A DNA stretch of 64,000 bases from a candidate division FCPU426 bacterium. Its GTDB lineage: Bacteria; Oederibacteriota; Muellerivitia; Muellerivitales; Muellerivitaceae. Under the pieces are notes generated by a model, which saw nothing but the letters and a program-made list of their open reading frames with translations, had not been told where the DNA came from and did no database searches. The stretch is taken from positions 21,138 to 85,137 of the forward strand of contig CAWKAR010000041.1 in the NCBI GenBank assembly GCA_963847625.1, written 5' to 3'. Both the position numbers and the translations under genes were made by a program. Below are positions 34,515 to 64,000 of the stretch, piece after piece (positions within the stretch are counted from its first letter, which is position 1; each line of letters starts with the position of its first letter).

Positions 34515-34567
34515 GTTTACCGACATATCCACCCCTGCGTGGTAAGCGAGTTTATCAAGGGATTAAA

Positions 34568-36736: not shown

Positions 36737-37503
36737 TGTCCCACTGGTTGTCCATATCTCTCTTGCTCGCCTTTCTGGGCTTGGACGTGTCTGCGGTGGG
36801 CCAGTTTATGGTTTCCCGGCCCATTGTGGTGGGGCCTTTGGTTGGGCTGCTGACGGGACACGCGGATCTTGGCCTGGAATTGGGGGCGTTCGTAGAGCTC
36901 ATTTGGTCCGGGGATGTGCCGGTGGGTGCGCACCTGCCGCTTGATCTTTCCATGTTGGCTGGGCTATCGGTGGCATTCGCTTCCGAACTCGTGGGAGGGG
37001 CCTGCCCGAAGGAGGCCGCAGTGACTTATGCCTTGGGGGTGGCGATTCCCCTATCCGCCGTAAGCACGCATGTGGAAATTTTCCTCCGGAAGTTTCATGT
37101 CCGCTGGGTACACTTCGCCCAACGCATGGCCATGAATTCGCGCCTGAGAACCTTCGAATGGGTCAACTATATCGTGATCCTAGAACTTTTCTTGAAGGGA
37201 TTTCTGATGGCTTTCCTGGGCCTTCTCATAGAACATTGGACAGCCGGTATTTTCCATTCATTCCCGCCCCGGGTCATCGAGGGCCTTTATTATGCGAACT
37301 GGCTTCTTCTGGCCCTGGGTTGTTCGGCGGTCATTGACCTGGTGGTGGAAAAGAAAAATGTCCTTTGGCTGGTCCTCTCCATCGCCACGCTTCTGACACT
37401 GGCCCTGGTCTTTCGGGTCCAGGAAGTCTGGCTGGTGGCCTTGTCCCTCTTGGCCGGCTTCGTGGCCACTCTTTTTTTCCTGGGAAAGGGGGAGGCCACA
37501 TGA
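36733..37503 (+). CDS. Mannose-family PTS EIIC
   Basis: QFMVSRPIVVGPLVG...LGAFVELIW..VPVG; ATGA overlap with GH57. Confidence 0.88.
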   Translation: MMSHWLSISLLLAFLGLDVSAVGQFMVSRPIVVGPLVGLLTGHADLGLELGAFVELIWSGDVPVGAHLPLDLSMLAGLSVAFASELVGGACPKEAAVTYALGVAIPLSAVSTHVEIFLRKFHVRWVHFAQRMAMNSRLRTFEWVNYIVILELFLKGFLMAFLGLLIEHWTAGIFHSFPPRVIEGLYYANWLLLALGCSAVIDLVVEKKNVLWLVLSIATLLTLALVFRVQEVWLVALSLLAGFVATLFFLGKGEAT

Positions 37504-38387: not shown

Positions 38388-38397
38388 AAGGGCTCCC

Positions 38398-38670
38398 ATG
38401 AAATTGAGCGATAAGATAACCGTGGTCAACAAATTGGGGTTGCATTTAAGAGCCGCCGCCGAACTGGTGAAGGTGGCCAACAAATTCAAGTGTCAAATCA
38501 CCATCCATCACGGGGTCCAGAATGTCAACGCCAAGAGCTTAATGGGCCTGATGACACTGGCTGCAGCCAAGGGAACCGAACTGGAGTTTCTGGCGGACGG
38601 GGAAGACGCCAAGGAGGCCCTGGCGGCCTTGAAACAGTTGGTGACGCAAAAATTCGGAGAAAAAGAGTGA
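38398..38670 (+). CDS. ptsH: Phosphocarrier HPr
   Basis: GLHLRAA (His15) and NAKSLMGL (Ser46). Confidence 0.95.
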   Translation: MKLSDKITVVNKLGLHLRAAAELVKVANKFKCQITIHHGVQNVNAKSLMGLMTLAAAKGTELEFLADGEDAKEALAALKQLVTQKFGEKE

Positions 38671-38725
38671 AACCATTTGACGGTTATGGGCGGAATAGAA
38701 GCCTAAACCTTTTTAGGAGATCCTA

Positions 38726-40835: not shown

Positions 40836-43800
40836 ATGACCGTCAAACGGAAAAATAAAATCTGTCGGGGTTTATTTCCCTTTGAAACCGGTTTAATTAC
40901 CCGGTTGGTTTCTGCACTACTGGCTTTCCTTTGTTTTTGTCTATCTCTGACTCTTCCGTTCCGGTCTTTGGCCCAATGCACCCCCTCCTCGGCCAGGATC
41001 TGCCTAAGCGGTGACGACAACACCCATGTTTGGATGAATGGTTTCGATATTGGGACGCAGATGTATTGCAATTGGGACGGCACCGGCACATGCCCGCCGG
41101 CATGCCTGACCATTCCTACTTCGGATTTCAACCTAGGTCAAACCGTGTGCCTGTCCATCGCCACCACAAATACCTCCGCCGGCTTTGTTTATTCCTCCTG
41201 GATGTTGGACGTGACCTGCTCGAACGGTTCTCATTCGGTTATCACCAACACCACGACCACGCCGAAGCTCTATTTCGACTCCGGCGCCGCGGGTGATGGG
41301 ACGGGCACTTGCGGCACCTCAACGGGGGCCCCCGTCACTGACGGTAGCAGTAATGCCTGGACTTCCCCTAATTACAACCCCGCATCGAGCCCTTTTACCT
41401 GGACGGTTTACAGCGACGCCGGCACAGTCTATTCACCGCCGATCTACAATCCCATCACCGGAGCTTCCGTCCCTTGGATCTCCTGGCAAGCCTCGGGGCA
41501 GGGAAGCGGGAACGGAAGCTGCGGCATCATGTATATGCGCCAATGCACCACGCTTCCGACCACCCAGACACCCTTGGGTCCGACCAGTTTTACCATCAGT
41601 AAGGTTTTCGCTAGTGGAAATCCTGTCATTGGAACCAGCAATGTCATGGTTACCTATTACGTCGAGGTTTGCAACAAGGGCCAGGGGGCAACAACGCCTG
41701 TTACACTCACCGACACCATGAGCAACACTTTGATTGGCATGAACTATACCGCAATCAACGATTTAACCCCGGAACCCACCGAGTCCGTGGGTGCAGTCAG
41801 TTTTCTCGACAATGGCAGTCCACTTACGCTCATATATCTTGGGGGTTATTTCCCCGGAAATGCTTGTGTAACCCTGGTTGTTTCAGCCGCGAATGATTAT
41901 TACACGTCCAGTGATCTCGGGACCCCCATTCCAAATTGTGGCGGCGTGGCTTGGAGCACGGGAAGCGCCAGCTCTTGTGTTACCTTCACCCTTCCGACCC
42001 TTTCCCCCACGCCAACCTTCACTTACACTTTGACCTATACTAATACATACACTTATACACCGACCAAGACGACACCCACCTATACTCCTACCTATACCTA
42101 TACTTATACCCCGACAATCGCGGTTACTCCGACACCCACCCATACCAATACCTACACCTATACTTACACCAATACATTCACCGCCACTTCCACTCAGACT
42201 CGCACCAATTCTCCGACCAATACACAGACGCCCTCGCCTACCCCCACACAAACGAACACGCCAACGCGTTCAGCTACCCCCACACTGACAAACACAATCT
42301 CGCCTACTCCTACCCCCACCATGACACCGACGCCTACTCCGACGCGTTCAAACACACCCACCTCCACACCCACAGTTTCACCGACACCCACCCCTACAAA
42401 TACCCCGACCCGGACACCGAGCCCCACGTCTACGGTTACACCTACCCCAACTCCGACCGTCTCGCCCACTCCTACTCCCACAGTTTCACCGACGCCTACT
42501 CCGACGCGTTCAAATACACCCACCAACAGCCCTACCAATACCATGACGGTTACCCCGTCAAATACTGCTACCCGAACGTCGACACCCACACTGACAAACA
42601 CAATCTCGCCTACTCCTACTCCCACAATGACACCGACGCCTACTCCGACGCGTTCAAATACACCGACCAACAGCCCTACCAATACCATGACGGTTACCCC
42701 ATCAAATACTGCTACCCGGACGCCTACTCCCACCCTGACGAACACCACGACCCAGACACCCACAACATCCTCCACCCCGACGCCTACAAATACGGCTACT
42801 CCTACTCCAACCCGTACACCCACTCCCACTCCGACTAACTCCCCAATCTCTACACCCACAACCTCGCCCACTCCTACACCAACCAATACTCCCACTGTCA
42901 CCCCGACTCGGACGTCAACATCCACACCGACGAACTCCCCAACCTCCACACCCACAACCTCGCCTACTCCTACTCCCACAGTTTCACCGACTCCTACTCC
43001 GACGCGTTCAAATACACCCACCAACAGCCCTACCAATACCATGACGGTTACCCCATCAAATACTGCTACCCGAACGTCAACTCCCACACCGACGAACTCC
43101 CCAACCTCCACACCCACAACCTCGCCCACTCCTACATCGACGAATAGCCCAACGTCTACTCCGACCCGGACGCCTACTCCCACCCTGACGAACACCACGA
43201 CCCCGACACCCACAACATCCTCCACCCCGACGCCTACAAATACGGCTACTCCTACTCCAACCCGTACACCCACTCCCACGTCAACGAACTCGGCTACAAA
43301 TAGCCCTACAAACACACCCACGCCGACCGCGACGAACACACCGACGAGAACACCTACCCCCACCCCGACCCCCACGCCTACGAACACGCTTACTCCCACC
43401 CCCAGCCCGACTGGGACCACATCGCCTACATCCACCGCGACTAACACCCCCACACGCACGAACACACCCACTTCAACTTCCACGCCCACCATTACACCCA
43501 CGCTCACGCCTACTTCCACCCCAACACGGACACCTACACCTACTTTGACGCCAACCCCGACGACGACCCCTACGCCTACGCCGACGAATACACCCACTAA
43601 CACACCAATTTCCACGTCCACGCCAACCCCGACGACAACGCCAACGCTGACCCCCACGAATACACCGACGAGAACACCTACCCCCACCCCGACCTCTACA
43701 CCAACCACAACCCCCACGCTGACCCCGACCAACACGCCCACAAGGACGCCTACGTCCACTCCGACCCCCACGTCTACCATTACCCCCACACCGACGCCAA

Positions 43801-46391
43801 CCAATACGCCTACGAACACGCTTACTCCCACCCCCAGCCCGACTGGGACCACATCGCCCACATCCACCCCGACCAACACCCCCACCCGCACGAACACACC
43901 CACTTCGACTTCCACGCCCACCATTACACCCACGCTCACGCCTACTTCTACCCCGACAAGGACACCCACACCCACTCCGACACCCTCTCCCACAACGACC
44001 CCTACGCCTACGCCGACGAATACACCCACTAACACACCAATTTCCACGTCCACGCCGACTCCGACGACAACGCCAACGCTGACCCCCACGAATACACCGA
44101 CGAGAACACCTACCCCCACCCCGACCTCTACACCAACCACAACCCCCACGCTGACCCCGACCAACACGCCCACAAGGACGCCTACGTCCACTCCGACCCC
44201 TACGCCTACCATTACCCCCACACCGACGCCAACCAATACGCCCACCAACACGCTTACTCCCACCCCCAGCCCGACTGGGACGACTTCACCCACGAATACC
44301 CCGACCAACACCCCCACTCGCACGAACACACCCACTTCGACTTCCACGCCCACCATTACACCCACGCTCACGCCGACTTCTACCCCGACAAGGACACCCA
44401 CACCCACTTTGACGCCGACCCCGACGACGACCCCTACGCCTACGCCGACGAATACACCCACTAACACACCAATTTCCACGTCCACGCCAACCCCGACGAC
44501 AACGCCAACGCTGACCCCCACGAATACACCGACGAGAACGCCTACCCCTACCTCTACACCAACCACAACCCCCACGCTGACCCCGACCAACACGCCCACA
44601 AGGACGCCTACGTCCACTCAGACCCCCACGCCTACCATTACCCCCACACCGACGCCAACCAATACGCCCACCAACACGCTTACTCCCACCCCCAGCCCAA
44701 CTGGGACCACATCGCCCACATCCACCCCGACCAACACTCCCACGCGCACAAACACACCCACTTCGACTTCCACGCCCACGATCACATTTACGCCAACCCC
44801 AACCAATACCCCAACCAACACACCGACTTCCACACCGACGCCCACTCCTACAACGACTCCCACATTTACTCCGACTTTCACTCCAACGAGGACGTCCACA
44901 CCTACTCCGACCCTGACTCTAACGGCGACATCTTCGCCCACGCCCACAACCACACCGACCTCAACCCCGACGAGTACGCCCACACCGACCCCGACAACAA
45001 CGCCCACTCTCACTCCAACCAACACGCCCACATCCACCCCGACCCCGACGCGCACGCCAACCCCCAGCGCGACGGCTTCCCCGACTCCAACGGCTTCCTT
45101 GACATCAACTGGGACGCCCACCATTACGTCTTCGCCGACCCCCAGCCCGACCGGCACGACATCGCCCACGAATACACCCACCATTACGCCAACGACTACA
45201 CCAACCTCAACTCTCACTCCCACACCGACCTTGACACCCACATCGACACCCACCAACACGCCCACCCGCACCCCGACGCCAACTCCAACGGATACTTTTA
45301 CCTCGACGCCGACCTCGACTCCAACTGGCACCTCAACCAACACACCCACCTCGACCTATACCCCCATCTTCACGCCAACATACACATACACCCCGACGAA
45401 CACATCCACTCCCACAACCACCCCGACCAATACGCCGACCCCGACATCGACCCCCACCCCAACAAATACCAACACTCCTACCCCGATACCGACCAACACA
45501 TCCACTTCAACGCCGACCTCGACTCCAACTCCCACCCCGACCGACACCCCCATATTCACGCCAACATCCACCAACACCCCAACGGACACTTATACGGCCA
45601 CGAATACTTCCACTTCGACCAACACACCAACGGACACTTATACGGCCACCCAGACGAATACGCCGACATCAACGAAAACTCCCACCAACACTGCTACGGT
45701 CACAAACACTCCGACAGCCACTTATAGCCCCACGGACACTTTGACCCCCACCTCCACGTTTACCGCCACAAATACACCGACCTCGACCGCCACCCCGACC
45801 ACAACCAACACTCCAACTGATACAAGTACTCCGACATCCACGAGCACCCCCACAAACACCTTCACAGCCACGTTGACCTCGACAGCTACTTATACCTCCA
45901 CGAATACGCCGACCCCGACCTTTACCCGGACCTCGACCTTGACCCCAACCTTTACCAGCACCTGGACCTCCACCTCCACCCCCACGTTCACGCGTACCCC
46001 GACACCGACTAAGACAAACACGCCCCTTTGGACCTCCACTCCCACGCCGACTTCCACGCTCACGGCGACCTCCACGGTCACGCAGGTGCCGACCTGGACG
46101 CCGACGGTAGATTACTTCACGGTGACGAAGAACGTATTCAAGGGAGGGGAGTCGGTATCCATCTATGTGGGGACGAGCCAATACCCCGGGCCGTTCGAAT
46201 TGAGCGTGTACAATTCGGCGGGGGAGCACATTAGGACGTTGGACAGCCGGTACCTGGAAGCACTGTTTGAAGGAAGCTTCTATTGGGATGGGAAGAACAA
46301 GTTCGGGGACATGTGCGCGAGCGGGGTTTACCTCTTCTACCTGACGGAACCCATGGACCGCAAAACCAAGAGGGTCATCTTTATTAGGTGA
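40836..46391 (+). CDS. Giant secreted mucin-like surface protein 1 (Cys-rich head, Thr/Pro stalk, FlgD-Ig/T9SS-like C-terminal domain)
   Basis: Signal peptide ...[10 protein letters not shown]; ~390-aa head; ~1,370-aa (T-x)n stalk; 94-aa C-domain with [17 protein letters not shown]. Confidence 0.88.
41995..46106 (+). repeat. Intragenic Thr/Pro repeat array, including 432/432/426-nt super-units
   Basis: CCCAGCCC(G/A)ACTGGGAC anchors at 43401, 43833, 44265, 44691. Confidence 0.9.
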
Positions 46392-46419
46392 AATAATTTG
46401 GGAAAACGCGAAGGGAAGC

Positions 46420-49400
46420 ATGGTTGAAATGAAATTAAATAATAATATTCAAACGGTCATAAGGATGGGAATAGCATTCCTTTCCATCTTGATAGTCCCC
46501 GTCCTTTCCTGGGCCCAGTGTGCACCCTCGGCGTTAAAGATTTGCGCCAATGCCGATGACCTGATCACCCTCTACTTAAACGGCAATAGCGCAGGAACTT
46601 TCGGATACGTAGGAACGTATGACACGGCGGCGATCAGCTGCAACACCGTCAGCACAAGCTTCTTGAACGCCACCGGAACCAACGTCATCTCGGTGCTGAA
46701 CCAGAGTACTGCTGCCTCACAGATGTGGGCCACTTGGTCGCTGGATATAACCTGTTCCAATGGCCAGCACGTCTACGTCACAGACGCGTCAAGCGCGGTC
46801 TCGGTTTTCGACGAACTTAACAGTTGCTCCGTCACTGCCCCGCCGGGAACGGGGGGCAACTGGTATTCCACTAGTTTTGTCCCGACAGGTTGGACGGTTG
46901 CCTCAACCGTGTCGGGAACCCTTTGGGGCAAACAAATCCTGGACCCCCAGACTGGTGTGGCCATACCGGTCATTTCATACAATAGCAGCGCCTACGCCCC
47001 CGACGCTGGTTGCGATTGGGAATATTTCCTGCAGGACTTCACCTTGAGTAATACGGTCACCCCGCCTGCCGCGCCCGCCTTCACCGTCTCCAAATCCGCC
47101 AGCCCGAACAGCGACGTTATGAACAACGCCAATATCACCTATATCTTGCAGGTATGCGACACGGGCGGCCCGGAACTTGAACCAGTTACTGTCACGGAAA
47201 CCACGCCGGTGGATTTTACGGGAGATTTTAGTTATATGTGGGAAGTCACGCCAGCCGGACCTTGGTATCCCTGGTGTGGCGGCGCCGCGTCGGTTTGCAC
47301 CAATGCTGACTCGACTCAAACATTTTCTATTGTTTATCCACTGGGTTTCGCAGCGAATTCCTGCCAGTCCGTAACCTGGCAGGATTATTCAGGCTGGAAT
47401 TACAGTTGCGATGTCCGTTACAACAAAGCCACCATCTACTACTATAACGGCTCTTCCATAACAACCACGAATTACACGACCCTCGCGCCCATAACGATAG
47501 CTTGTAACACCGCTACCCCGACCTACACACCAACCTACACCTATACGTACACTTATACACCGACCAAGACGACACCCACCTATACTCCTACCTACACCTA
47601 TACCTATACCCCGACAATCGCGGTTACTCCGACATTCACCCATACCAATACCTACACCTATACTTACACCAATACCTTCACCGCCACGTCTACTCCGACC
47701 CGCACCAATTCTCCGACCAATACACAGACGCCCTCGCCTACCCCCACACAAACGAACACGCCAACGCGTTCAGCTACCCCCACACTGACAAACACAATCT
47801 CCCCTACTCCTACCCCCACAATGACACCAACGCCTACTCTGACGCGTTCAAACACACCGACCAACACACCCACCTCCACACCCACAGTTTCACCGACACC
47901 CACCCCTACGAATACCCCGACCCGGACACCGAGCCCCACGTCTACGGTTACACCTACCCCAACTCCGACCGTCTCGCCCACTCCTACTCCCACAGTTTCA
48001 CCGACGCCTACTCCGACGCGTTCAAATACACCCACCAACAGCCCTACCAATACCATGACGGTTACCCCGTCAAATACTGCTACCCGAACGTCGACACCCA
48101 CACTGACAAACACAATCTCGCCTACTCCTACTCCCACAATGACACCGACGCCTACTCCGACGCGTTCAAATACACCGACCAACAGCCCTACCAATACCAT
48201 GACGGTTACCCCATCAAATACTGCTACCCGGACGCCTACTCCCACCCTGACGAACACCACGACCCCGACACCCACAACATCCTCCACCCCGACGCCTACA
48301 AATACGGCTACTCCTACTCCAACCCGTACACCCACTCCCACACCGACGAACTCCCCAACCTCCACACCCACAACCTCGCCCACTCCTACGCTGACCAATA
48401 CTCCCACAGTTTCACCGACTCCTACTCCGACGCGTTCAAATACACCCACCAACAGCCCTACCAATACCATGACGGTTACCCCATCAAATACTGCTACCCG
48501 AACGTCAACTCCCACACCAACTAACTCCTCAACCTCCACACCCACAACCTCGCCCACTCCTACATCGACGAATAGCCCAACGTTTACTCCGACCCGGACG
48601 CCTACTCCCACCCTGACGAACACCACGACCCCGACACCCACAACATCCTCCACCCCGACGCCTACAAATACGGCTACTCCTACTCCAACCCGTACACCCA
48701 CTCCCACACCGACGAACTCCCCAACCTCCACACCCACAACCTCGCCCACTCCTACGCCAACCAATACTCCCACTGCCACCCCGACCCGGACGTCAACTCT
48801 CACTCCGACGAACTCCCCAACCTCCACACCCACAACCTCGCCCACTCCTACGCTGACCAATACTCCCACAGTTTCACCGACTCCTACTCCGACGCGTTCA
48901 AATACACCCACCAACAGCCCTACCAATACCATGACGGTTACCCCATCAAATACTGCTACCCGAACGTCAACTCCCACACCAACTAACTCCTCAACCTCCA
49001 CACCCACAACCTCGCCCACTCCTACATCGACGAATAGCCCAACGTTTACTCCGACCCGGACGCCTACTCCCACCCTGACGAACACCACGACCCCGACACC
49101 CACAACATCCTCCACCCCGACGCCTACAAATACGGCTACTCCTACTCCAACCCGTACACTCACTCCCACGTCAACAAACTCGGCTACAAATAGCCCTACA
49201 AACACACCCACGCCGACCGCGACGAACACACCGACGAGAACACCTACCCCCACCCCGACCCCCACGCCTACGAACACGCTTACTCCCACCCCCAGCCCGA
49301 CTGGGACCACATCGCCTACATCCACCGCGACTAACACCCCCACACGCACGAACACACCCACTTCAACTCCCACGCCCACCATTACACCCACGCTCACGCC

Positions 49401-52335
49401 TACTTCCACCCCAACACGGACACCTACACCTACTTTGACGCCAACCCCAACGACGACCCCTACGCCTACGCCGACGAATACACCCACTAACACACCAATT
49501 TCCACGTCCACGCCAACCCCGACGACAACGCCAACGCTGACCCCCACGAATACACCGACGAGAACACCTACCCCCACCCCGACCTCTACACCAACCACAA
49601 CCCCCACGCTGACCCCGACCAACACGCCCACAAGGACGCCTACGTCCACTCCGACCCCTACGCCTACCATTACCCCCACACCGACGCCAACCAATACGCC
49701 CACCAACACGCTTACTCCCACCCCCAGCCCGACCGGGACCACATCGCCTACATCCACCGCAACTAACACCCCCACCCGCACGAACACACCCACTTCGACT
49801 TCCACGCCCACCATTACACCCACGCTCACGCCTACTTCTACCCCGACAAGGACACCCACACCCACTCCGACACCCTCTCCCACAACGACCCCTACGCCTA
49901 CGCCGACGAATACACCCACTAACACACCAATTTCCACGTCCACGCCGACTCCGACGACAACGCCAACGCTGACCCCCACGAATACACCGACGAGAACACC
50001 TACCCCCACCCCGACCTCTACACCAACCACAACCCCCACGCTGACCCCGACCAACACGCCCACAAGGACGCCTACGTCCACTCCGACCCCTACGCCTACC
50101 ATTACCCCCACACCGACGCCAACCAATACGCCCACCAACACGCTTACTCCCACCCCCAGCCCGACTGGGACGACTTCACCCACGAATACCCCGACCAACA
50201 CCCCCACCCGCACGAACACACCCACTTCGACTTCCACGCCCACCATTACACCCACGCTCACGCCGACTTCTACCCCGACAAGGACACCCACACCCACTTT
50301 GACGCCGACCCCGACGACGACCCCTACGCCTACGCCGACGAATACACCCACTAACACACCAATTTCCACGTCCACGCCAACCCCGACTACCACACCTACT
50401 CCCACTTCGACGAACACACCCACGAGGACGCCTACGTCCACTCCGACCCCCACGCCTACCATTACCCCCACACCGACGCCAACCAATACGCCCACCAACA
50501 CGCTTACTCCCACCCCCAGCCCAACTGGGACCACATCGCCCACTGCCACCCCGACCAACACTCCCACGCGCACAAACACACCCACTTCGACTTCCACGCC
50601 CACGATCACATTTACGCCAACCCCAACCAATACCCCAACCAACACACCGACTTCCACACCGACGCCCACTTCTACAACGACTCCCACATTTACTCCGACT
50701 TTCACTCCAACGAGGACGTCCACACCTACTCCGACCCTGACCCTAACGGCGACATCTTCGCCCACGCCCACAACCACACCGACCTCAACCCCGACGAGTA
50801 CGCCCACACCGACCCCGACAACAACGCCCACTCTCACTCCAACCAACACGCCCACATCCACCCCGACCCCGACGCGCACGCCAACCCCCAGCGCGACAGC
50901 TTCCCCGACTCCAACGGCTTCCTTGACATCAACTGGGACGCCCACCATTACGTCTTCGCCAACCCCCAGCCCGACCGGCACGACATCGCCCACGAATACA
51001 CCCACCATTACGCCAACGACTACACCAACCTCAACTCTCACTCCCACACCGACCTTGACACCCACATCGACACCCACCAACACGTCCACCCGCACCCCGA
51101 CGCCAACTCCAACGGATACTTTTACCTCGACGCCGACCTCGACTCCAACTGGCACCTCAACCAACACACCCACCTCGACCTATACCCCCATCTTCACGCC
51201 AACATACACATACACCCCGACGAACACATCCACTCCCACAACCACCCCGACCAATACGCCGACCCCGACATCGACCCCCACCCCAACAAATACCAACACT
51301 CCTACCCCGATACCGACCAACACATCCACTTCAACGCCGACCTCGACTCCAACTCCCACCCCGACTGACACCCCCATATTCACGCCAACATCCACCAACA
51401 CCCCAACGGACACTTATACGGCCACCCAGACGAATACGCCGACATCAACGAAAACTCCCACCAACACCGCTACGGTCACAAACACTCCGACAGCCACTTA
51501 TAGCCCCACGGACACTTTGACCCCCACCTCTACGTTTACCGCCACAAATACACCGACCTCGACCGCCACCCCGACCACAACCAACACTCCGACTGATACA
51601 AGTACTCCGACATCCACGAGCACCCCCACAAACACCTTCACAGCCACGCCGACCCCGACGGCCACTTATAGTCCCACGAACACTTTGACCCCCACCTCCA
51701 CGTTTACCGCCACAAATACACCGACTTCGACCGCCACCCCGACCACAACCAATACCCCGACTGATACGGGCACTTCGACATCCACGAGTACCCCCACGAA
51801 CACCTTCACAGCCACGTTGACCTCGACAGCTACTTATACCTCCACGAATACGCCGACCCCGACCTTTACCCGGACCTCGACCTTGACCCCAACCTTTACC
51901 AGCACCTGGACCTCCACCTCCACCCCCACGTTCACGCGTACCCCGACACCGACTAAGACAAACACGCCCCTTTGGACCTCCACTCCCACGCCGACTTCCA
52001 CGCTCACGGCGACCTCCACGGTCACGCAGGTGCCGACCTGGACGCCGACGGTAGATTACTTCACGGTGACGAAGAACGTATTCAAGGGAGGGGAGTCGGT
52101 ATCCATCTATGTGGGGACGAGCCAATACCCCGGGCCGTTCGAATTGAGCGTGTACAATTCGGCGGGGGAGCACATTAGGACGTTGGACAGCCGGTACCTG
52201 GAAGCACTGTTTGAAGGAAGCTTCTATTGGGATGGGAAGAACAAGTTCGGGGACATGTGCGCGAGCGGGGTTTACCTCTTCTACCTGACGGAACCCATGG
52301 ACCGCAAAACCAAGAGAGTGATCTTCATCCGGTAA
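46420..52335 (+). CDS. Giant secreted mucin-like surface protein 2
   Basis: ...SWA|QCAPSA; different head; ~1,510-aa stalk; C-domain identical in amino acids to proteins 1 and 3. Confidence 0.88.
47508..52050 (+). repeat. Intragenic Thr/Pro repeat array, including 432/432/360-nt super-units
   Basis: Anchors at 49291, 49723, 50155, 50515. Confidence 0.9.
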
Positions 52336-52362
52336 GGATTACCAAAAAAATATTTGGATTTT

Positions 52363-54411: not shown

Positions 54412-54518
54412 AAGCTGCTCCTCAATAAAACAGTAAACTCAAAAAACGATTGAATCCCAAAGGACAGGTCACAATTTTTAGTAAACCCGGGAATGAGATA
54501 TGGATAGACCTGATCGCA

Positions 54519-56927
54519 TTAATCCAATTGTTGATCCCAGGTTTTTTTCCTCCAAAACCAACCCAAAACCCCAAAGTAGGCCAGAAGGGCCCCGGTTGAA
54601 ATCCACTTTCCGGCGCTGAACCCGGGTGGATCATAGTTTAAGAAAAAATGGTGTTTCCCAGCGGAAAGAGGGATGGCCCGGGCGATAACGTCGCCCGGTA
54701 TCACCTCGTAATGTTGCTGGGAACTATCGGGGCAGGCCAGGGCCTTCCATCCGAGAGCGTAATTTTCCGTCACCAGTAGGACCTGGGGGCGGGAAGTTTG
54801 GGCCTCCACTTCAATCATATCGGTCGTAGTATCCCGCAGCGACACTTGGTCGTGGGTGGTTCCTTCTTCGGGCGAGGGAATTGGTTCTTTTTCCAGCAGG
54901 ACCACCTTGGTTGGATCGAAGTTCTTCCGGTTGAGGCGCATCATGGCTTGGCTGGCATCCGTCTCCTTTTCCCAGAGGCCGATCAGGATGGCCCGGGGCA
55001 GGACAGGTCCGGGTACCGGTTCCACTTTAAATCCAGCCGTGCTGTCTTCCACCATATAACGAAGGCGCGTCAGCTTGATCTTCGTGGTGGTCAGCAACAG
55101 TAGTTCGGAAAAAGTGGGATTCGGGTTGAACTTCTCGTAGGCGGATCCGTCCCCGTAGGTGATGAAAGTGCCGTACCGCTTGGGGAGGAAGGGATCGTCC
55201 CCCCAGATGTCTTGTTTCCGGAAGGACATAGCAAGATCGTCGTGGCCCTTCCAATAGATCCGGTTTTCCCCGGGACCGGGAGCCATGACGTTTTGGACGG
55301 TTGCTTCCACGCCCTCCAAGATTTTCGGGCTGAAAAACCGTAGGGTGGAATGGGCGAAAAACCATAAGTTGACCATTCCCAGGAGGACCAGGCAAATTCG
55401 GAAGATGGGGTGGGATCGGGCGAGAATCCAAAACAGGCTGAAGAAAAATAGGAATCCAGCGCCCGTGACCAGGTTGACGATTCGCACCGCCGCGACTTGG
55501 GTGGGGAATTGGGGGGATTCAGGTGGAAAGGGAATATCTCCGTTCAGCCGGAGTGTCCCAGTGACCCCATCCAGGCCGGCACCCTCGTAAATTCCCAAAC
55601 CAGCGGCTAGAAGGATAAAACCCAAAAGAAAGGCCATCCAGGCGGGCCAGAATTTTTCGGCCCGGCCGGAAAACCAGGTTTGAATCCCGAGGGAAGCCAG
55701 GAAAGAAAAAGCCAATTGGAAAAAGATGACGGCTTTGAAACTTCCCCGGAAGAAATTGAAAGGAGGGACCCAATCGTACAGGATCGGGTAAACCGGGGTA
55801 TAGAAGCCCATGGCGAAGATTAGGGAAACCAAGGCGAGGCCCGTTAAAACCCAGCTTTTCCTGGCTGGATTTTGGATCAATCCGTAAAAAGCCAACAGGA
55901 TCGCGATGCTTCCTATGAAGAGGGAGGATTCCCACCAAATTCGGCCCCCGCCCCACCCGGAAAAGTGATGGGGGTTCCCGTTCAAGCCGGAAGCCGCCAG
56001 CGTCAAAAGGTTCATGGGGTGGAAGGAAAAAAATTGTTGCAACTCCAGCGAGGACGGGGCCTCCCGAAGGCTTTCCTTCGAGGCCAGAAGGCCGGGCAAC
56101 CATTGGACTGTCGTGAGGACCAGGCTTCCAGCTGCCATGGACAGGCCCCCGCAAACCTTCGCAACCCACCGGGCCCGGTCCAGGAGAATCAAGGCGAGGG
56201 CGTAAAGCCCCGCGAAAAACAACGTGTAAACAAAATATTGTGCGTGTCCGGCTAAAAGTTCCATGGACAGGACGGCTGCACCCCCCAGGACCCACTTGGG
56301 GGAAGGGGACTTCAATTGGCCGTCCACCATGAGGAAGACCAAAGGAATCCAAGCCATGGTGCAGAGGTTGGTCAGATGGCCGGGATAAACATGCAGAAAG
56401 AACGCCCCGCCGAACATGAAGGCGATGGACCCGAACAGGCGGGCGATGAAACGGAAATGGCTCTTGGCCAGCCAGAGGTACATGAAAAATCCGGCGAGGA
56501 AGACGTGGAGGGCGATGGAAAAATTCAAGGCGAAAGTGAGGGGTAATAACATAAAAAACCAGTTGGGGGGATACAAGAGGGCGGATTGGAAACCCGCGAA
56601 GAAAGGAGCGCCACAATAGATGTAAGGATTCCAAAAGGCAAGGTGCCCTTTTTTCAGTTCGGAAAAACCAAAATCCCGCCAGGCGTAGAATTGATTGGCC
56701 AGGTCCCCATCGGCGGAGGAGATAAGGATATCCTGGGAGAAAAGGGCTTTGCCGAAGAGCGCCAAAACCATTGCCGCTAAAATCCCCAAGGCCCAAAGTG
56801 TAGGCCTTTTGTAAAAGAAATTCAGAATATGCTCCGGACTGCCTAGGCTGGAGGGGGGGGCCATAGAGAAGAATTGAGTTTTCACCTTGTCTCCTTGCGC
56901 GGCATTTTGATTCTGGTTAGAAGCCAT
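54519..56927 (-). CDS. YfhO-family GT-C membrane protein
   Basis: FWNPYIYCGAPF...LYPPN, LLAGHAQ, C-terminal LLVTENYALGWKA...LSAGKH + TM. Confidence 0.85.
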   Translation of the reverse strand: MASNQNQNAAQGDKVKTQFFSMAPPSSLGSPEHILNFFYKRPTLWALGILAAMVLALFGKALFSQDILISSADGDLANQFYAWRDFGFSELKKGHLAFWNPYIYCGAPFFAGFQSALLYPPNWFFMLLPLTFALNFSIALHVFLAGFFMYLWLAKSHFRFIARLFGSIAFMFGGAFFLHVYPGHLTNLCTMAWIPLVFLMVDGQLKSPSPKWVLGGAAVLSMELLAGHAQYFVYTLFFAGLYALALILLDRARWVAKVCGGLSMAAGSLVLTTVQWLPGLLASKESLREAPSSLELQQFFSFHPMNLLTLAASGLNGNPHHFSGWGGGRIWWESSLFIGSIAILLAFYGLIQNPARKSWVLTGLALVSLIFAMGFYTPVYPILYDWVPPFNFFRGSFKAVIFFQLAFSFLASLGIQTWFSGRAEKFWPAWMAFLLGFILLAAGLGIYEGAGLDGVTGTLRLNGDIPFPPESPQFPTQVAAVRIVNLVTGAGFLFFFSLFWILARSHPIFRICLVLLGMVNLWFFAHSTLRFFSPKILEGVEATVQNVMAPGPGENRIYWKGHDDLAMSFRKQDIWGDDPFLPKRYGTFITYGDGSAYEKFNPNPTFSELLLLTTTKIKLTRLRYMVEDSTAGFKVEPVPGPVLPRAILIGLWEKETDASQAMMRLNRKNFDPTKVVLLEKEPIPSPEEGTTHDQVSLRDTTTDMIEVEAQTSRPQVLLVTENYALGWKALACPDSSQQHYEVIPGDVIARAIPLSAGKHHFFLNYDPPGFSAGKWISTGALLAYFGVLGWFWRKKTWDQQLD

Positions 56928-56944
56928 GAACCCGCCTTTGTTTT

Positions 56945-56960
56945 ATGAAATGCATTTTAT
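56945..56960. promoter_or_regulatory. Operator type B (ATRAAATGCATTTTAT)
   Basis: ATGAAATGCATTTTAT; one mismatch to the perfect copy at 62101-62116. Confidence 0.6.
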
Positions 56961-57072
56961 GATTTATGACCTAATAACTTTAACTTGATAGTTAAAAATA
57001 CTTGAAAACACGAAGATGAAAGGGTTTTCTTGTCTTTAAGATTATAGGGAATAGTGGTAAAGTTCCCTTATA

Positions 57073-57091
57073 AAAACGTTTTAATTCAATG
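57073..57091. promoter_or_regulatory. Operator type A (AAAACGTTTT, LacI-like)
   Basis: AAAACGTTTTAATTCAATG; matches 62064-62082 at 18/19. Confidence 0.65.
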
Positions 57092-57144
57092 GAAAAAGGT
57101 TTTTTAGATATTATCTTGTTTATTGCCCATTTTGTGCCTGAAAA

Positions 57145-60100
57145 ATGAAACCGGTTCACAGTGAAAACGACATGCGATTTGTAAACGGACTGACATCCAA
57201 TAGGATTAACAGGATTTTGGGATGGGTTAGATTGTCCCTCCCATTCCAGTGTTTTATAGCTTTGTTAATTACTGCGTTCCTAATGGGACTTCCCGTCGGA
57301 GCATTAGCGCAGTGCACCCCCTCCTCGGCATTACTTTGCGTTTCCGTGGATGATAATGCGGAGGTTTGGATCAATGGTTTTGATATTGGCACTGCTACCT
57401 ATTGCAATACTGAAGGCCAAAATTCCGTTACACAATCCTGCACCATCAATTGTTTCACCATTCCATCCGGTGATTTTAACATGGGCCAGAGCATTGTACT
57501 GGCCCTGGCTGTAACCAATACCGCTTCTCCTGAAACCTCCTTTTCGTATTCGCTGGATGTTGCATGCAGTAATGGAGAACATTCTTATCTGACCAACGCG
57601 ACAGCACAATCGTTGATTGATTACCATTCAGACGTTGGTGGGACCTGCACTGCCGATAGCCCTATCACAGATGCAAGCGGGCATTACTGGTACGCGACCA
57701 ATTACAATCCCTCCAGTACCCCTTTCACCGTCACTTCTATGGCTGAGACTTGTTCGGTGTGGGTGGGTAAAATCCAGGATCCCTTAACCGGTCTTCCCAT
57801 TTCACCTAGTTCCACCAGTGCATGCCCGAGCGTGGGAAGTTGCGGGATCATTTATGTCCGGGACGCCACTACCTTGCCGGCTCCCCAACCGACCTTAGGC
57901 CCGGTGAGTATGACAATCACCAAATCCATTCTTAGCGCCCCTGCAACTTTCGCAACTAATGATTGGGGGGTTACGTATGTTTTAAACATTTGCAATTATG
58001 GAAAACCGGCTACCAACGCCGTCACATTGGTCGATTCGGTTAGCTATACTCCATCAGGTATGGGCTTTGCTGAATACTCTGTAGGGCAATACCCACCTGG
58101 TGGAACAGCAACGGTATTCACCAACTGCTGTCCTTGGGCCCAATCTCCGGGCGATCCCATTACCTTTGTGTGCCAATCATCCTCTACCGGCGGAACCACC
58201 TGGATTTATGGAAATTTTCCTGGGGACGGGAATTGTACCTCCGTCACGCTAGGTTATAGAAGCTATTATTGGCTCGACCCAAGCATCTGCGGAGCGGTTA
58301 CGAATATCGCCAACTCCTATTGGAACGGAGGAAGCGTCACTTCCAACACCGTCATGGCCACAATCCCTTGCACCCCCTTCACTGCAACATTTACTTATAC
58401 GCAAACCCCAACTTTTACATTTACTTATACCCCAACCAAGGCGACTCCCACCTTTACCCCCACCTACACTTATACCTATACCCCGACGATTGCGGTTACT
58501 CCGACATTCACCCACACCAATACCTTCACCGTCACTTCTACTCCAACCCGCACCAATTCTCCGACCAATACACAGACGTCCTCGCCTACCCCCACACAAA
58601 CGAACACGCCAACGCGTTCAGCTACCCCCACACTGACAAACACAATCTCGCCTACTTTTTCTCCCACAATGACACCGACTCCTACTCTGACGCGTTCAAA
58701 TACACCCACCAACAGCCCTACCAATACCATGACGGTTACCCCGTCAAATACTGCTACCCGAACGTCGACACCCACACTGACAAACACAATCTCGCCTACT
58801 CCTACTCCCACAATGACACCGACGCCTACTCCGACGCGTTCAAACACACCGACCAACACACCAACCTCCACACCCACAGTTTCACCGACACCCACCCCTA
58901 CGAATACCCCGACTCGGACGTCAACATCCACACCGACTAACTCCCCAACCTCCACACCCACAACCTCGCCTACTCCTACTCCCACAGTTTCACCGACTCC
59001 TACTCCGACGCGTTCAAATACACCCACCAACAGCCCTACCAATACCATGACGGTTACCCCATCAAATACTGCTACCCGGACGTCAACATCCACACCGACT
59101 AACTCCCCAACCTCCACACCCACAACTTCGCCCACTCCTACACCAACCAATACTCCCACTGCCACCCCGACCCGGACGTCAACACCCACACCGACGAACT
59201 CCCCAACCTCCACACCCACAACCTCGCCTACTCCTACACCAACCAATACTCCCACTACCACCCCGACCCGGACGTCAACTCCCACACCAACTAACTCCTC
59301 AACCTCCACACCCACAACCTCGCCCACTCCTACATCGACGAATAGCCCAACGTCTACTCCGACCCGGACGCCTACTCCCACCCTGACGAACACCACGACC
59401 CCGACACCCACAACATCCTCCACCCCGACGCCTACAAATACGGCTACTCCTACTCCAACCCGTACACCCACTCCCACGTCAACGAACTCGGCTACAAATA
59501 GCCCTACAAACACACTCACGCCGACCCCGACGAACACACCGACGAGAACGCCTACCCCCACCCCGACCCCCACGCCTACGAACACGCTTACTCCCACCCC
59601 CAGCCCGACTGGGACCACATCGCCTACATCCACCGCGACTAACACCCCCACACGCACGAACACACCCACTTCAACTTCCACGCCCACCCCGACGACAACG
59701 CCAACGCTGACCCCCACGAATACACCGACGAGAACACCTACCCCCACCCCGACCTCTACACCAACCACAACCCCCACGCTGACCCCGACCAACACGCCCA
59801 CAAGGACGCCTACGTCCACTCCGACCCCTACGCCTACCATTACCCCCACACCGACGCCAACCAATACGCCCACCAACACGCTTACTCCCACCCCCAGCCC
59901 GACTGGGACGACTTCACCCACGAATACCCCGACCAACACCCCCACCCGCACGAACACACCCACTTCGACTTCCACGCCCACCATTACACCCACGCTCACG
60001 CCGACTTCTACCCCGACAAGGACACCCACACCCACTTTGACGCCGACCCCGACGACGACCCCTACGCCTACGCCGACGAATACACCCACTAACACACCAA

Positions 60101-61971
60101 TTTCCACGTCCACGCCAACCCCGACGACAACGCCAACGCTGACCCCCACGAATACACCGACGAGAACACCTACCCCCACCCCGACCTCTACACCAACCAC
60201 AACCCCCACGCTGACCCCGACCAACACGCCCACAAGGACGCCTACGTCCACTCAGACCCCCACGCCTACCATTACCCCCACACCGACGCCAACCAATACA
60301 CCCACCAACACGCTTACTCCCACCCCCAGCCCAACTGGGACCACATCGCCCACATCCACCCCGACCAACACTCCCACGCGCACAAACACACCCACTTCGA
60401 CTTCCACGCCCACGATCACATTTACGCCAACCCCAACCAATACCCCAACCAACACACCGACTTCCACACCGACGCCCACTCCTACAACGACTCCCACATT
60501 TACTCCGACTTTCACTCCAACGAGGACGTCCACACCTACTCCGACCCTGACTCTAACGGCGACATCTTCGCCCACGCCCACAACCACACCTACCTCAACC
60601 CCGACGAGTACGCCCACCCCGACCCCGACGCGCACGCCAACCCCCAGCGCGACAGCTTCCCCGACTCCAACGGCTTCCTTGACATCAACTGGGACGCCCA
60701 CCATTACGTCTTCGCCAACCCCCAGCCCGACCGGCACGACATCGCCCACGAATACACCCACCATTACGCCAACGACTACACCAACCTCAACTCTCACTCC
60801 CACACCGACCTTGACACCCACATCGACACCCACCAACACGCCCACCCGCACCCCGACGCCAACTCCAACGGATACTTTTACCTCGACGCCGACCTCGACT
60901 CCAACTGGCACCTCAACCAACACACCCACCTCGACCTATACCCCCATCTTCACGCCAACATACACATACACCCCGACGAACACATCCACTCCCACAACCA
61001 CCCCGACCAATACGCCGACCCCGACATCGACCCCCACCCCAACAAATACCAACACTCCTACCCCGATACCGACCAACACATCCACTTCAACGCCGACCTC
61101 GACTCCAACTCCCACCCCGACCGACACCCCCATATTCACGCCAACATCCACCAACACCCCAACGGACACTTATACGGCCACGAATACTTCCACTTCGACC
61201 AACACACCAACGGACACTTATACGGCCACCCAGACGAATACGCCGACATCAACGAAAACTCCCACCAACACTGCTACGGTCACAAACACTCCGACAGCCA
61301 CTTATAGCCCCACGGACACTTTGACCCCCACCTCCACGTTTACCGCCACAAATACACCGACCTCGACCGCCACCCCGACCACAACCAACACTCCGACTGA
61401 TACAAGTACTCCGACATCCACGAGTACCCCCACGAACACCTTCACAGCTACGTTGACCTCGACAGCTACTTATACCTCCACGAATACGCCGACCCCGACC
61501 TTTACCCGGACCTCGACCTTGACCCCAACCTTTACCAGCACCTGGACCTCCACCTCCACCCCCACGTTCACGCGTACCCTGACACCGACTAAGACAAACA
61601 CGCCCCTTTGGACCTCCACTCCCACGCCGACTTCCACGCTCACGGCGACCTCCACGGTCACGCAGGTGCCGACCTGGACGCCGACGGTAGATTACTTCAC
61701 GGTGACGAAGAACGTATTCAAGGGAGGGGAGTCGGTATCCATCTATGTGGGGACGAGCCAATACCCCGGGCCGTTCGAATTGAGCGTGTACAATTCGGCG
61801 GGGGAGCACATTAGGACGTTGGACAGCCGGTACCTGGAAGCACTGTTTGAAGGAAGCTTCTATTGGGATGGGAAGAACAAGTTCGGGGACATGTGCGCGA
61901 GCGGGGTTTACCTCTTCTACCTGACGGAACCCATGGACCGCAAAACCAAGAGAGTGATCTTCATCCGGTAA
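57145..61971 (+). CDS. Giant secreted mucin-like surface protein 3
   Basis: ...[10 protein letters not shown]; third head variant; ~1,100-aa stalk; identical C-domain; start may be 57172. Confidence 0.88.
58372..61686 (+). repeat. Intragenic Thr/Pro repeat array, including 294/432-nt super-units
   Basis: Anchors at 59599, 59893, 60325. Confidence 0.9.
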
Positions 61972-62029
61972 AAAGGTTTATGAGAGTTTAAAAGACCAAA
62001 ATATCTGAAATTAGTGCAGGAATCGTAGG

Positions 62030-62117
62030 TTGACACCTAAAAAGGATGTGATAAATTATAATTAAAACGTTTTAATTTAATGAAGTACAACCATGAATCC
62101 ATAAAATGCATTTTATG
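62030..62117 (+). promoter_or_regulatory. Promoter with two perfect 18-bp palindromes
   Basis: TTGACA (62030-62035), 16 nt, TAAATT; AATTAAAACGTTTTAATT (62060-62077); CATAAAATGCATTTTATG (62100-62117). Confidence 0.7.
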
Positions 62118-62229
62118 CCCAGGTTATTTTCCTCCTGTGCCTATTCCCCCACATTTGGATTTATAACGTTTTTCAGCTCAGCGAGAGGATTACTGAAAGA
62201 ATACCTCTTCAACCCTTTTAAGGTGCCGT

Positions 62230-64000
62230 ATGAAATTCAGATTCTCCCAGTTTAAAACATCTAAACATTTTATTCCCTGGAAAACCCTCGCGTTTTGTTG
62301 CGCATTCATGTTCTCACGTGGCCTTGAAGCGACACCGCTCATCGTAAAGTCCACCCAGCAGACACTGGTAGCCCCTGGGGATGCCGTCACTTACACCCTC
62401 GGAACCGATAACGTAAGCAGCACCGTGAGTGAACAACAGGATTTTAGCGGAGGGATCCCGTCCGGGTGGACCCAGGCGGTCACGGGCGGTACCTGGACTG
62501 CTACCGGAGGATATTTGCAGCAAACCGCCACCGGCCTCTCGGGATATCCCCAGATTATGGACTCCACCATGACGCCGATTCATGACGGAATTTTCCAGAC
62601 GGATATGATGATTTCCTCTCTGGATACGGGACACTTCGACGCGGTTTTTATATTCGACTACGTGGACAGCAACAATTTTTACATGGCAAGGATCAACGCG
62701 AATTCTTGTGATCCGAGCAAAACGACATCCAATCTTTTTCTCGATACGATCATCAACGGCACCCAAACCATACCGGCCGCCTCCGTTACCTCGCCGCACG
62801 GACTGAATCTATTATGCGATACCTGGTACACCATCCAGTTTGAGGTATGCGGCAACAATATCTTGATGAAAGTTTGGCCCACGGGCCAGCCGGAATATGT
62901 CGGCTGGGACCTTAACTTAACCCTATCGGCGGGGGTCACGGGAAACGGGATCGTGGGTTTCCAGGCGAACCAGGGGCCTGTGGCTTACGACAACCTTAAA
63001 GTGTATTCCCTGGGTAGCACCGACGACAGCGTAGTGGTAACCGACACGATCCCCACCGCCATCAATTATGTCGGCAGTTCGTGCGGCTTGACCCATAGCG
63101 GGAGCCTTCTGACCTGGAACGTAGGAACCCTTTCACCCTGCGGTAATCCGCCCTCCTGCCAATGGTGGGGAACGGTTTCTTCCACCGCCTCATCCGCTAC
63201 GTCGGTGGAGGTCATTCCCAATACAGCCGCGATCCGGTCCAGCGAGGTTCCGGCACCCAGCAACAGTTCGGCGACTGTCACGGTGTTAGGTTGTAAGACC
63301 GCCCCTAAGCTGGATTTAGAAGTAGAGGCGACTACTTGTAGCGGCACTGAGAGGGATTACACCTTCCGTGTCATCAACTGGGATAACATTCCCGTGAACC
63401 TCAGCGATCTAACCGTTAAATTCTGGGGAAATTATGCCTGTACCATAACGGCGACTGCATTCGGTGGTGGCCCAGTATCCAGCGCGACCGCATGGCTATA
63501 TGGTGCCGGCGCTCCGACAGCCTCAGCCGTAAGCATGGGACCCTGCACATCCCCTTCTGACCGGCAGGCCAACTGGGAATTTAGCATGACCAACGCCGGG
63601 GTTACCGGTACGATTCCCGCGGCAGGCGGGAGCTGGAACCCGCAGGGTTTCCGCATCAATTGCGGGGATTGGTCGACCATGGATGACACTACTTCCTTCT
63701 CACACGGGGTTGCTTGCGACAGCGCGTTCCATGAATCGCCGTACTTCGCGCTTTATTACCGGGGTTATTTGGTCAAGGAGTATACGAGCAGTACGGCGGC
63801 TGACAGCAATACCGGCACGGAGCCATCCTGCTTGGTTTCATCCTGTTCGGGACCGACTCCTACTCCCACAAACACATTTAGCCCAACGCTGACTCTTACT
63901 TCCACAAGAACAGCGACTTCTTCCCCGACAAATACTCTAACCCCCACACAGACTCCTACCCGCACGAATACACCTACGAACACCAACACACCGACTCCCT
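62230..64000 (+). CDS. Secreted surface protein 4 (DUF11-like Ig with inserted ConA-like domain, CBM3-like domain, start of Thr/Pro stalk); 3'-truncated and absent from the ORF track
   Basis: Hand-translated, stop-free from ATG 62230 to the window end: MKFRFSQF...GLEA|TPLIVKS..APGDAVTYTL...VVVTDTIP...LTWNVGTL...FRVINWDNIPVNLSDLTVKFW...ALYYRGYLV...GTEP...PTPTPTNT. Confidence 0.85.
   Translation, partial: MKFRFSQFKTSKHFIPWKTLAFCCAFMFSRGLEATPLIVKSTQQTLVAPGDAVTYTLGTDNVSSTVSEQQDFSGGIPSGWTQAVTGGTWTATGGYLQQTATGLSGYPQIMDSTMTPIHDGIFQTDMMISSLDTGHFDAVFIFDYVDSNNFYMARINANSCDPSKTTSNLFLDTIINGTQTIPAASVTSPHGLNLLCDTWYTIQFEVCGNNILMKVWPTGQPEYVGWDLNLTLSAGVTGNGIVGFQANQGPVAYDNLKVYSLGSTDDSVVVTDTIPTAINYVGSSCGLTHSGSLLTWNVGTLSPCGNPPSCQWWGTVSSTASSATSVEVIPNTAAIRSSEVPAPSNSSATVTVLGCKTAPKLDLEVEATTCSGTERDYTFRVINWDNIPVNLSDLTVKFWGNYACTITATAFGGGPVSSATAWLYGAGAPTASAVSMGPCTSPSDRQANWEFSMTNAGVTGTIPAAGGSWNPQGFRINCGDWSTMDDTTSFSHGVACDSAFHESPYFALYYRGYLVKEYTSSTAADSNTGTEPSCLVSSCSGPTPTPTNTFSPTLTLTSTRTATSSPTNTLTPTQTPTRTNTPTNTNTPTP

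Follow-up and report, generated by a model that had tools for sequence, protein, structure and literature searches.

In streptococci, GT-C glycosyltransferases of the YfhO family glucosylate disordered Ser/Thr-rich regions, as reported for S. pyogenes and S. pneumoniae, and the Pgf cluster of S. mutans brings together PgfS, PgfE and two YfhO-type GT-Cs (PgfM1 and PgfM2) with the Thr-rich adhesins Cnm, CnaB and CbpA; Pgf glycosylation is reported to protect Ser/Thr-rich regions from proteolysis (PMC12041528). The human enzyme TMEM260 O-mannosylates Ig-like IPT domains (PMC10214176; 10.64898/2026.03.17.711096), and an actinobacterial PMT (GT39) places as many as 65 hexoses on a 69-aa linker of Cellulomonas glycoside hydrolases (PMC11727336). 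[quoted passage not shown] Here we describe a locus at positions 40836-64000 of a 64,000-nucleotide window (the whole stretch of DNA that was analysed, G000:C41:21138-85137, G000 being the organism's own genome), in which four genes for exported proteins with a head, a long Thr/Pro stalk and a C-terminal tail flank genes for a TMEM260-like and a YfhO-like membrane protein. Our preferred reading, to which we give a probability of about 0.5, is that these two putative GT-C enzymes O-glycosylate the threonines of the stalks in the periplasm before the proteins are exported. The original prediction recognised no described system of this composition; the Pgf cluster is an analogue (PMC12041528).

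The exported design proposed originally is borne out by the open reading frames (ORFs) and by comparison of the tails. All three complete proteins consist of an N-terminal hydrophobic signal ending in A-Q-C, a head, a stalk of 1109-1507 aa and a 94-aa tail that is 100% identical at the protein level, and their reading frames are unbroken from signal peptide through tail. The fourth gene is truncated by the contig end, which is also the right end of the window, and its head differs from those of genes 1-3, as had been noticed. The stalks are 47-48% Thr, 22-23% Pro and 9-10% Ser with about 3% charged residues, and Thr or Ser stands at i+2 in 86-87% of cases. At the DNA level they are nested tandem repeats of 72, 96, 144 and 432 nt with a GC skew near -0.6. 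If the chain is extended, at 0.25-0.31 nm per residue, the calculated span of a stalk is 277-467 nm.

Of the two membrane proteins encoded between genes 2 and 3, on the opposite strand, the 682-aa one matches the TMEM260-like family (Pfam PF11028) with 71.4 bits against a cut-off of 24.2, its residues 15-451 align with residues 33-490 of the human TMEM260 structure chain (9rql_A, E 2.5e-21), and TPR families match at residues 577-677. Mutating D52, H67, R264, Y267, R355 or D441 of the human enzyme abolished or strongly reduced its activity; D441, in the luminal Rossmann-like domain, is the catalytic base, and the TPR domain holds a peptide in extended form, stabilised by prolines at regular intervals (10.64898/2026.03.17.711096). 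Five of these six tested residues are kept in the alignment, where D34, H49, R236, Y239 and D402 of the 682-aa protein correspond to human D52, H67, R264, Y267 and D441, and human R355 falls opposite N318, where the alignment has gaps. Among the 25 papers listed out of 115 for DUF2723 or TMEM260, none deals with a bacterial member and all concern animals, and the available text of the preprint on the human structure never uses the word bacteria (10.64898/2026.03.17.711096).

The second protein, of 802 aa, had been assigned to the YfhO family, and this assignment holds through its relatives and its predicted fold, not through its own Pfam match, which lies below the gathering score (PF09586, E = 0.22, 10.2 bits against a cut-off of 28.5). 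Because PF09586 is on record for most of the 120 listed homologues, the 74%-identical orthologue included, the protein is predicted to represent a divergent branch of the family. An AlphaFold model built with 16 homologues (pLDDT 81, pTM 0.84) returned only GT-C folds among its top 40 Foldseek matches, AftA, EmbC, STT3, AglB, PglB, ArnT, AftD, Pmt4 and ALG9 among them. Of the 120 homologues, 117 retain Asp75, which lies in the first outer loop immediately after membrane helix 1. Sequence matches of the YfhO-like family profile in the PDB were limited to PgpB and were weak and probably spurious. From the family match and structural alignment of the one protein and the fold matches of the other, both are predicted to be GT-C glycosyltransferases, in agreement with the original proposal for this pair.

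The 94-aa tail is best read, from its family matches, as an export signal of T9SS type and of the FlgD-Ig kind. Searching G000 with the tail gave 51 matching places, and a profile made from tail copies matched 82 ORFs; in each of the best 44 (E <= 5e-18) the match reaches to within one residue of the ORF end. Twenty aligned copies have a mean column identity of 70%. When 20 copies were scanned singly (E <= 0.01), FlgD_ig was matched by all 20, CHU_C (a T9SS signal domain) by 17, TIGR04183 by 6 and PF18962 by 1; 19 matched the PorU model at its C-terminal tail and 10 the PorZ tail. The profile also matches each of 31 genomes sampled from the phylum, with 3-50 matches per genome. Machinery is represented in G000 by a SprA/Sov homologue of 2013 aa (TIGR04189, 236 bits against a cut-off of 200) and three proteins of the PorV/PorQ family (NF033709, 125-172 bits against a cut-off of 90); positions 1-961 of the PorU model are unmatched in this genome, only the model's own tail being matched. 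Our literature search returned no paper joining 'FlgD Ig-like' with 'type IX secretion'.

Ahead of the SprA-like gene (G000:C45:145448-156228, L121) lie lptF/G-like genes, judged by N-terminal sequence only; behind it, its stop codon overlaps the start codon of a gene for a 1580-aa protein that has a sorting tail and no Pfam or NCBIfam match. A 582-aa protein (G000:C26:27125-28876, L124) combines a PorV/PorQ-family barrel (159 bits) with an FlgD_ig-like middle and an OmpA peptidoglycan-binding domain, and could be a wall-tethered PorV. In a second class of tails, the FlgD-Ig-like match stops 174 or 271 residues short of the C-terminus and positions 962-1094 of the PorU model are matched; it occurs on several contigs (e.g., C49:83183-96881, C37:10864-22922 and C50:98896-104262). 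PorV-like genes often adjoin genes with divergent tails.

A tie between the two putative GT-Cs and the stalks is suggested by their neighbourhood. The original prediction proposed a check for linkage in related genomes, and the pair is indeed adjacent in five further genomes (G001, G002, G018, G010 and G005). In G001, from the same genus, ptsI is followed by three stalk genes, the GT-C pair and then another three stalk ORFs, of which two are complete and the third is truncated by the contig end; the five complete stalk genes encode 1549-1693 aa. In G002 and G018, from another genus (53-59% identity), the pair lies in tandem with Thr-rich, tail-bearing neighbours; in G010 it has a 990-aa Thr-rich neighbour and a gene for a head of the QCTP family, to which the heads of genes 1-3 belong; and in G005 it is found on a 5.4-kb contig. 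The neighbours carry QCTP heads in genus g1 and are GH5-like enzymes in G002, G018 and G010, with an S8 protease also in G002, and in these last three genomes each bears a Thr-rich linker and a Por_Secre-like tail. The identity of the neighbours changes between genera while Thr-rich linkers and sorting tails persist. Across nine YfhO-like loci of relatives, a DUF2723 gene is adjacent at five, absent at three and not assessable at one, and an ORF rich in Thr, Pro and Ser lies within about 5 kb of the YfhO-like gene at six, so that the linkage was recovered in part. Stalk genes also precede a second DUF2723 paralogue: in G000 it stands two genes downstream of one encoding 2173 aa, and in G001 directly downstream of one encoding 1773 aa. 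We regard a link between the GT-Cs and the stalks as plausible, its chances evenly balanced, and the pair as a good candidate for stalk O-glycosylation.

A number of observations weigh against this. The loci without a DUF2723 gene beside the YfhO-like homologue are G001:C4, G034:C9 and G010:C17, and the latter two also lack a Thr-rich neighbour. In G000, only 1 of 9 YfhO-like paralogues and 2 of 11 DUF2723 paralogues have a stalk gene no more than two genes away; with a background proximity of 4.3%, the latter figure does not clearly exceed chance. At 80 distant YfhO-like loci from other phyla, a DUF2723 gene was present at five, a Thr/Pro/Ser-rich ORF at one and the tail at none, and because only one of these 80 loci has such an ORF, the YfhO-like family as a whole is not tied to Thr-rich substrates. 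The related genomes are not independent, and their shared synteny may simply be inherited. On the side of export, the window tail reaches the cut-off of FlgD_ig only (27.9 versus 27 bits) and those of the T9SS models are not reached (CHU_C, 19.8 bits against 27), and no PorU-type peptidase, Peptidase_C25, GldL or GldM was found in a genome that is 93.9% complete, in searches whose controls were silent.

Alternatively, the GT-Cs would modify a non-protein polymer of the envelope, such as lipopolysaccharide (LPS) O-antigen or core, capsule or peptidoglycan, with the adjacency arising from the clustering of surface genes and the stalks glycosylated by other enzymes or left bare. YfhO homologues of Bacillus and Listeria are reported to glycosylate teichoic acids (PMC12041528), the YfhO-like family is widely distributed in the absence of Thr-rich neighbours, most GT-C paralogues in G000 lie away from stalk genes, and the DUF2723 cluster on contig C40 includes a GT9 gene of heptosyltransferase-like type together with genes for deoxy-sugars, as is typical for LPS. 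We nevertheless consider a non-protein acceptor unlikely, if a serious competitor, since the TMEM260-like protein keeps the luminal-domain catalytic base and the TPR domain, both of which serve peptide acceptors in the human enzyme, and since Thr-rich adjacency persists across genera despite differing neighbour genes.

The C40 cluster (G000:C40:22000-48414, L128, L125) contains two PMT_2 GT-Cs of 924-930 aa, each with a PA14 domain at the C-terminus, a GT2 resembling DPM1, a GT9, two GDP-mannose 4,6-dehydratases, an NPCBM protein, a PGI/PMI-type isomerase and several methyltransferases, including a C-methyltransferase. After these come the second DUF2723 paralogue, which is 12 kb from the GT2, PMT_2, dehydratase and isomerase genes, and the 2173-aa stalk gene. 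A similar GT2/DUF2723 neighbourhood occurs in G001:C8, G003:C11 and G004:C4, by N-terminal sequence likeness only. Within 40836-64000 there is no GT2 or lipid-sugar synthase.

The heads, of about 340-350 residues with 12-16 Cys in their mature form, were originally described as divergent, interchangeable and glycan-binding. The heads of genes 1-3 are instead homologous (gene 1 versus gene 3, E 2e-62; gene 1 versus gene 2, E 2e-31) and belong to the QCTP family, whose 18 paralogous members in G000 all open with AQCTP(S/T)..A..C..DD. The head of gene 4 belongs to another family, with three members in the genome and a weak DUF11 match, and the head of gene 2 has a weak DUF7507 match. A model of head 1 (pLDDT 76) has two beta-sandwich domains. 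In a fold search, residues 202-344 resemble the CnaB/DEv-IgG domains found in pilins and MSCRAMM adhesins of Gram-positive bacteria (Z-scores of 13.3 to EbpB, 13.0 to LrpA, 11.9 to FnBPA, 11.7 to SdrD and 10.3 to Cnm N2) and, with a Z-score of 11.9, a 'CLIPPER' domain from the fibrillar adhesin of a Gram-negative bacterium. Foldseek matches to the head fold were confined to generic Ig and integrin folds with low TM-scores, and for the N-terminal head domain the fold search made no assignment (Atlas score at most 0.86). Pfam and NCBIfam yielded no lectin or enzyme family, and no PA14, for the three heads, and the proposed glycan-binding tips find no counterpart there; an adhesin-like role is reasonable from the model.

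These Ig-like domains could themselves be the acceptor of the TMEM260-like enzyme, leaving the stalk to the YfhO-like enzyme or bare. The human enzyme targets Ig-like IPT domains (PMC10214176; 10.64898/2026.03.17.711096), the second domain of the heads is Ig-like (DUF11/CnaB-like), and DUF11 recurs in other cargo. We judge this improbable: the same Pfam and NCBIfam scans found no IPT family in the heads, and the stalk offers hundreds of threonines beside regularly spaced prolines, the kind of peptide that the enzyme's groove binds.

The stalk design extends far beyond the locus. G000 contains 62 ORFs with at least 300 residues of Thr/Pro/Ser-rich sequence, 43 of them with at least 800; together the 62 make up 6.5% of the genome, 32 have the tail, and 10, gene 4 included, touch a contig end. 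With four of the 62 stalk genes and two of about 20 paralogous GT-C genes, the locus is no self-contained system. A Pfam scan covered 40 of the 93 heads outside the QCTP family of the window. On these stalk proteins it identified glycoside hydrolase heads (three GH5, three GH8 and one each of GH9, GH12, GH30 and GH44), the GH9-headed stalk gene being confirmed as L174. Further heads were DPBB/Barwin domains (expansin-like, three), PA14 with DUF11, DUF11 alone, a legume-lectin-like domain, and two Sortilin/BNR heads, both under the cut-off. The remainder comprised five NHL propellers, 10 DUF7948 + SBBP heads and one IgGFc_binding head, with six giving no match. The genes in the window are a few members of a general display class that includes cellulases among its cargo.

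The 10 DUF7948 + SBBP proteins (L171, L178, L182-L185, L187-L189 and L200) are paralogous beta-propeller proteins with a short Thr-rich linker. Eight have the sorting tail; L178 (on C28) lacks it, and the stalk of L171 (on C19) is long, at 1026 residues. Several of their genes stand in tandem on C28, C45 and C57.

This breadth bears on the view, put forward in the original prediction, of a dedicated flocculin-like adhesin system under common regulation, with interchangeable tips that bind glycans and two glycosyltransferases of its own. The yfhO-like gene is indeed divergent from gene 3 across 217 nt, the intergenic region is 83% conserved in G001, and the second head domain has an adhesin-like fold. 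We think such a system very improbable: the design is used genome-wide and serves many glycoside hydrolases, the heads are paralogues of one family without a lectin match, the tail is a sorting signal common to at least 44 proteins, and promoter-like sites are not above chance. A scan of 52200-62400 gave four promoter-like sites against 6.2 expected and 15 terminator-like sites against 15.4 expected; because neither count is above chance, it says nothing on co-regulation, and the proposal of co-regulation gains nothing from it. Aligned with G001 (L007:15767-15955), the 217-nt region has a mean column identity of 83% with long invariant AT-rich blocks, compared with 75% in the flanking head-coding DNA, and a shared regulatory site is possible.

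Comparison of G000 with G001 shows that the parts of these genes have evolved differently. The heads are 1:1 orthologues, with 76.6%, 79.3% and 74.7% nucleotide identity over about 1130 nt, and paralogous heads have no DNA similarity or share only about 100 nt. The tails, in contrast, are 98.9-100% identical within G000 and 93.7-100% within G001 and only 81-83% identical between the two genomes, and long alignments of stalks are 69-94% identical within a genome versus about 62% between genomes. Over stalk and tail, the DNA of gene 3 reaches 99.6% identity with genes 1 and 2. Stalk and tail have been homogenised among the paralogues within each genome, whereas the heads evolve as ordinary orthologues. 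Because the heads are orthologous 1:1 while tails and stalks are more alike within genomes, the stalk paralogues are older than the split of the two species and their stalks and tails have been homogenised since. The locus is a clean case in which one part of a gene undergoes concerted evolution and another diverges normally. That near-identical repeats were collapsed or mis-joined in assembly, giving wrong gene lengths or head-stalk pairings, is very hard to credit despite 94-99.6% local DNA identity among the stalks of genes 1-3 and the stalk ORFs at contig ends, since G001, assembled in 20 contigs, shows this locus too, with the same pair, 1:1 orthologous heads and stalk genes of which five are complete, and since the frames run unbroken.

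Returning to glycosylation of the stalks by the GT-C pair, a route can be sketched from these homologies. The proteins would leave the cytoplasm by Sec through their N-terminal signal peptides. In the periplasm, the two enzymes, to judge from their families, may use polyprenyl-phosphate sugars to glycosylate threonines of the extended, proline-spaced stalk, a peptide of the kind that is gripped by the TPR and Rossmann-like domains of human TMEM260. The C-terminal domain would then route the protein to a SprA-type translocon of the outer membrane with partners of the PorV/PorQ type, and at the surface the stalk, if extended, could hold the head up to about 0.28-0.47 µm off the cell. A wider picture, which we offer tentatively and hold to be doubtful as a whole, is that of a soil or peat bacterium from a little-studied phylum with a mucin-like glycocalyx, in which some 60 enzymes (cellulases among them) and adhesin-like heads stand on O-glycosylated Thr/Pro rods of about 0.3-0.45 µm, exported by a reduced, SprA-based T9SS and glycosylated on their stalks by TMEM260- and YfhO-family GT-Cs. 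Four peat-metagenome DNA runs, all from one study, contain 6-16% of the sampled words; no RNA run was among those listed.

Coordinates are given in Table 1. Gene 2 begins 28 nt past gene 1, and because of this spacing the two are probably co-transcribed.

Table 1. Features of the stalk gene locus (nucleotide positions in the window; residue numbers where stated)
Feature	Position	Strand	Length	Description
Stalk gene 1	40836-46391	+	1851 aa	
Parts of stalk gene 1 (residues)	~1-46; ~47-392; ~393-1757			signal peptide; QCTP-family head; Thr/Pro stalk; then 94-aa sorting tail
Tail of stalk gene 1	46107-46388	+	94 aa	
Stalk gene 2	46420-52335	+	1971 aa	design as gene 1
Predicted TMEM260-like (DUF2723) GT-C glycosyltransferase	52363-54411	-	682 aa	C-terminal TPR; convergent with gene 2
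Predicted YfhO-like GT-C glycosyltransferase	54519-56927	-	802 aa	
Divergent intergenic region, yfhO-like gene/gene 3	56928-57144		217 nt	AT-rich
Stalk gene 3	57145-61971	+	1608 aa	QCTP-family head
Stalk gene 4	62230-63999	+		3' end open; cut by contig end, stalk only beginning

Upstream of the array, at 28343-40474, lies the conserved block rpoN-hpf-ptsN-hprK-yvcK-PTS(Man) IIB-GH57-IIC-IID-ptsI. Because ptsI is followed in G002 and G006 by a DUF2723 paralogue in place of the stalk array, the comparison suggests that stalk genes were inserted or expanded after ptsI in genus g1. At 6189-8404 a gene for the C-terminal half of a transketolase is directly followed by one for a RuBisCO large-chain-like protein (402 aa), and near this pair are genes for a GH5 (1722-2762) and a GH9 (2792-5065, minus strand). 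The original prediction suggested, as an example, attachment to plant polysaccharide alongside GH5 and GH9; both are present in the window, 35 kb away from the array.

Among described systems, S. mutans Pgf and the streptococcal GtrB/PgtC2 share with the present locus YfhO-type GT-Cs that transfer sugar from a lipid carrier onto Ser/Thr-rich regions outside the cytoplasm (PMC12041528), a function that is predicted here. As in Pgf, Thr-rich surface proteins are encoded beside the GT-Cs, and the second head domain resembles the N2 domain of Cnm (Z 10.3). Unlike Pgf, the host here is a diderm, the tail is of T9SS type and not LPXTG, the array contains no GT-A enzyme or epimerase, the partner is TMEM260-like, the stalks exceed 1100 aa, and about 60 proteins, cellulases included, would be served. 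With the actinobacterial GT39 system the locus has in common GT-C enzymes and the Ser/Thr-rich linkers of secreted cellulases (PMC11727336), but the GT-C families are others, the linkers are 15-20 times longer, and the diderm host adds an export tail. Fungal Flo/Epa adhesins and animal mucins resemble these proteins in design alone, without common descent: a head, a Ser/Thr/Pro-rich stalk of tandem repeats evolving by recombination and a cell-surface tail are present, whereas the heads have no PA14 or lectin match and there is no glycosylphosphatidylinositol anchor as in Flo/Epa.

The cargo of the Bacteroidota T9SS, such as the cellulases of Cytophaga hutchinsonii and TfsA/TfsB of Tannerella, likewise combines a Sec signal with a beta-sandwich sorting domain at the C-terminus. 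Further shared features are homologues of SprA and PorV/PorQ and the presence of cellulases in the cargo, and periplasmic glycosylation has a precedent there (PMC11611037). The present system differs in phylum, in a tail best matched as FlgD_ig, in its far longer linkers and in that PorU, GldL and GldM were not found by searches with silent controls, and each stalk has only one D(S/T)(A/I/L/V/M/T) motif. The terms 'threonine', 'linker' and 'T9SS' do not occur in the available text of a paper on Goldbacteria (PMC7031533).

The closest comparison for the 682-aa protein is human TMEM260 (PDB 9rql), with which it shares PF11028, the GT-C core, the luminal domain, the TPR domain and five of the six tested residues, and from which it differs by Asn in place of R355; the known human acceptors are IPT domains and not mucin-like repeats. 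A locus kept across several genera now offers a concrete acceptor candidate for bacterial TMEM260/DUF2723 enzymes in the form of a proline-spaced Thr repeat, which, if true, would be the first substrate for the bacterial DUF2723 family. Set against these systems, the present case differs in the combination of TMEM260-like with YfhO-like proteins, in the T9SS-like tail in another phylum, in stalks that exceed 1100 aa and in deploying the design for cellulases throughout the genome. Should the stalks be glycosylated rods, cellulases would be held at a great distance from the cell in a manner not yet described, and plant-cell-wall enzymes would have a third mode of display, besides cellulosomes and the surface systems of Bacteroidota.

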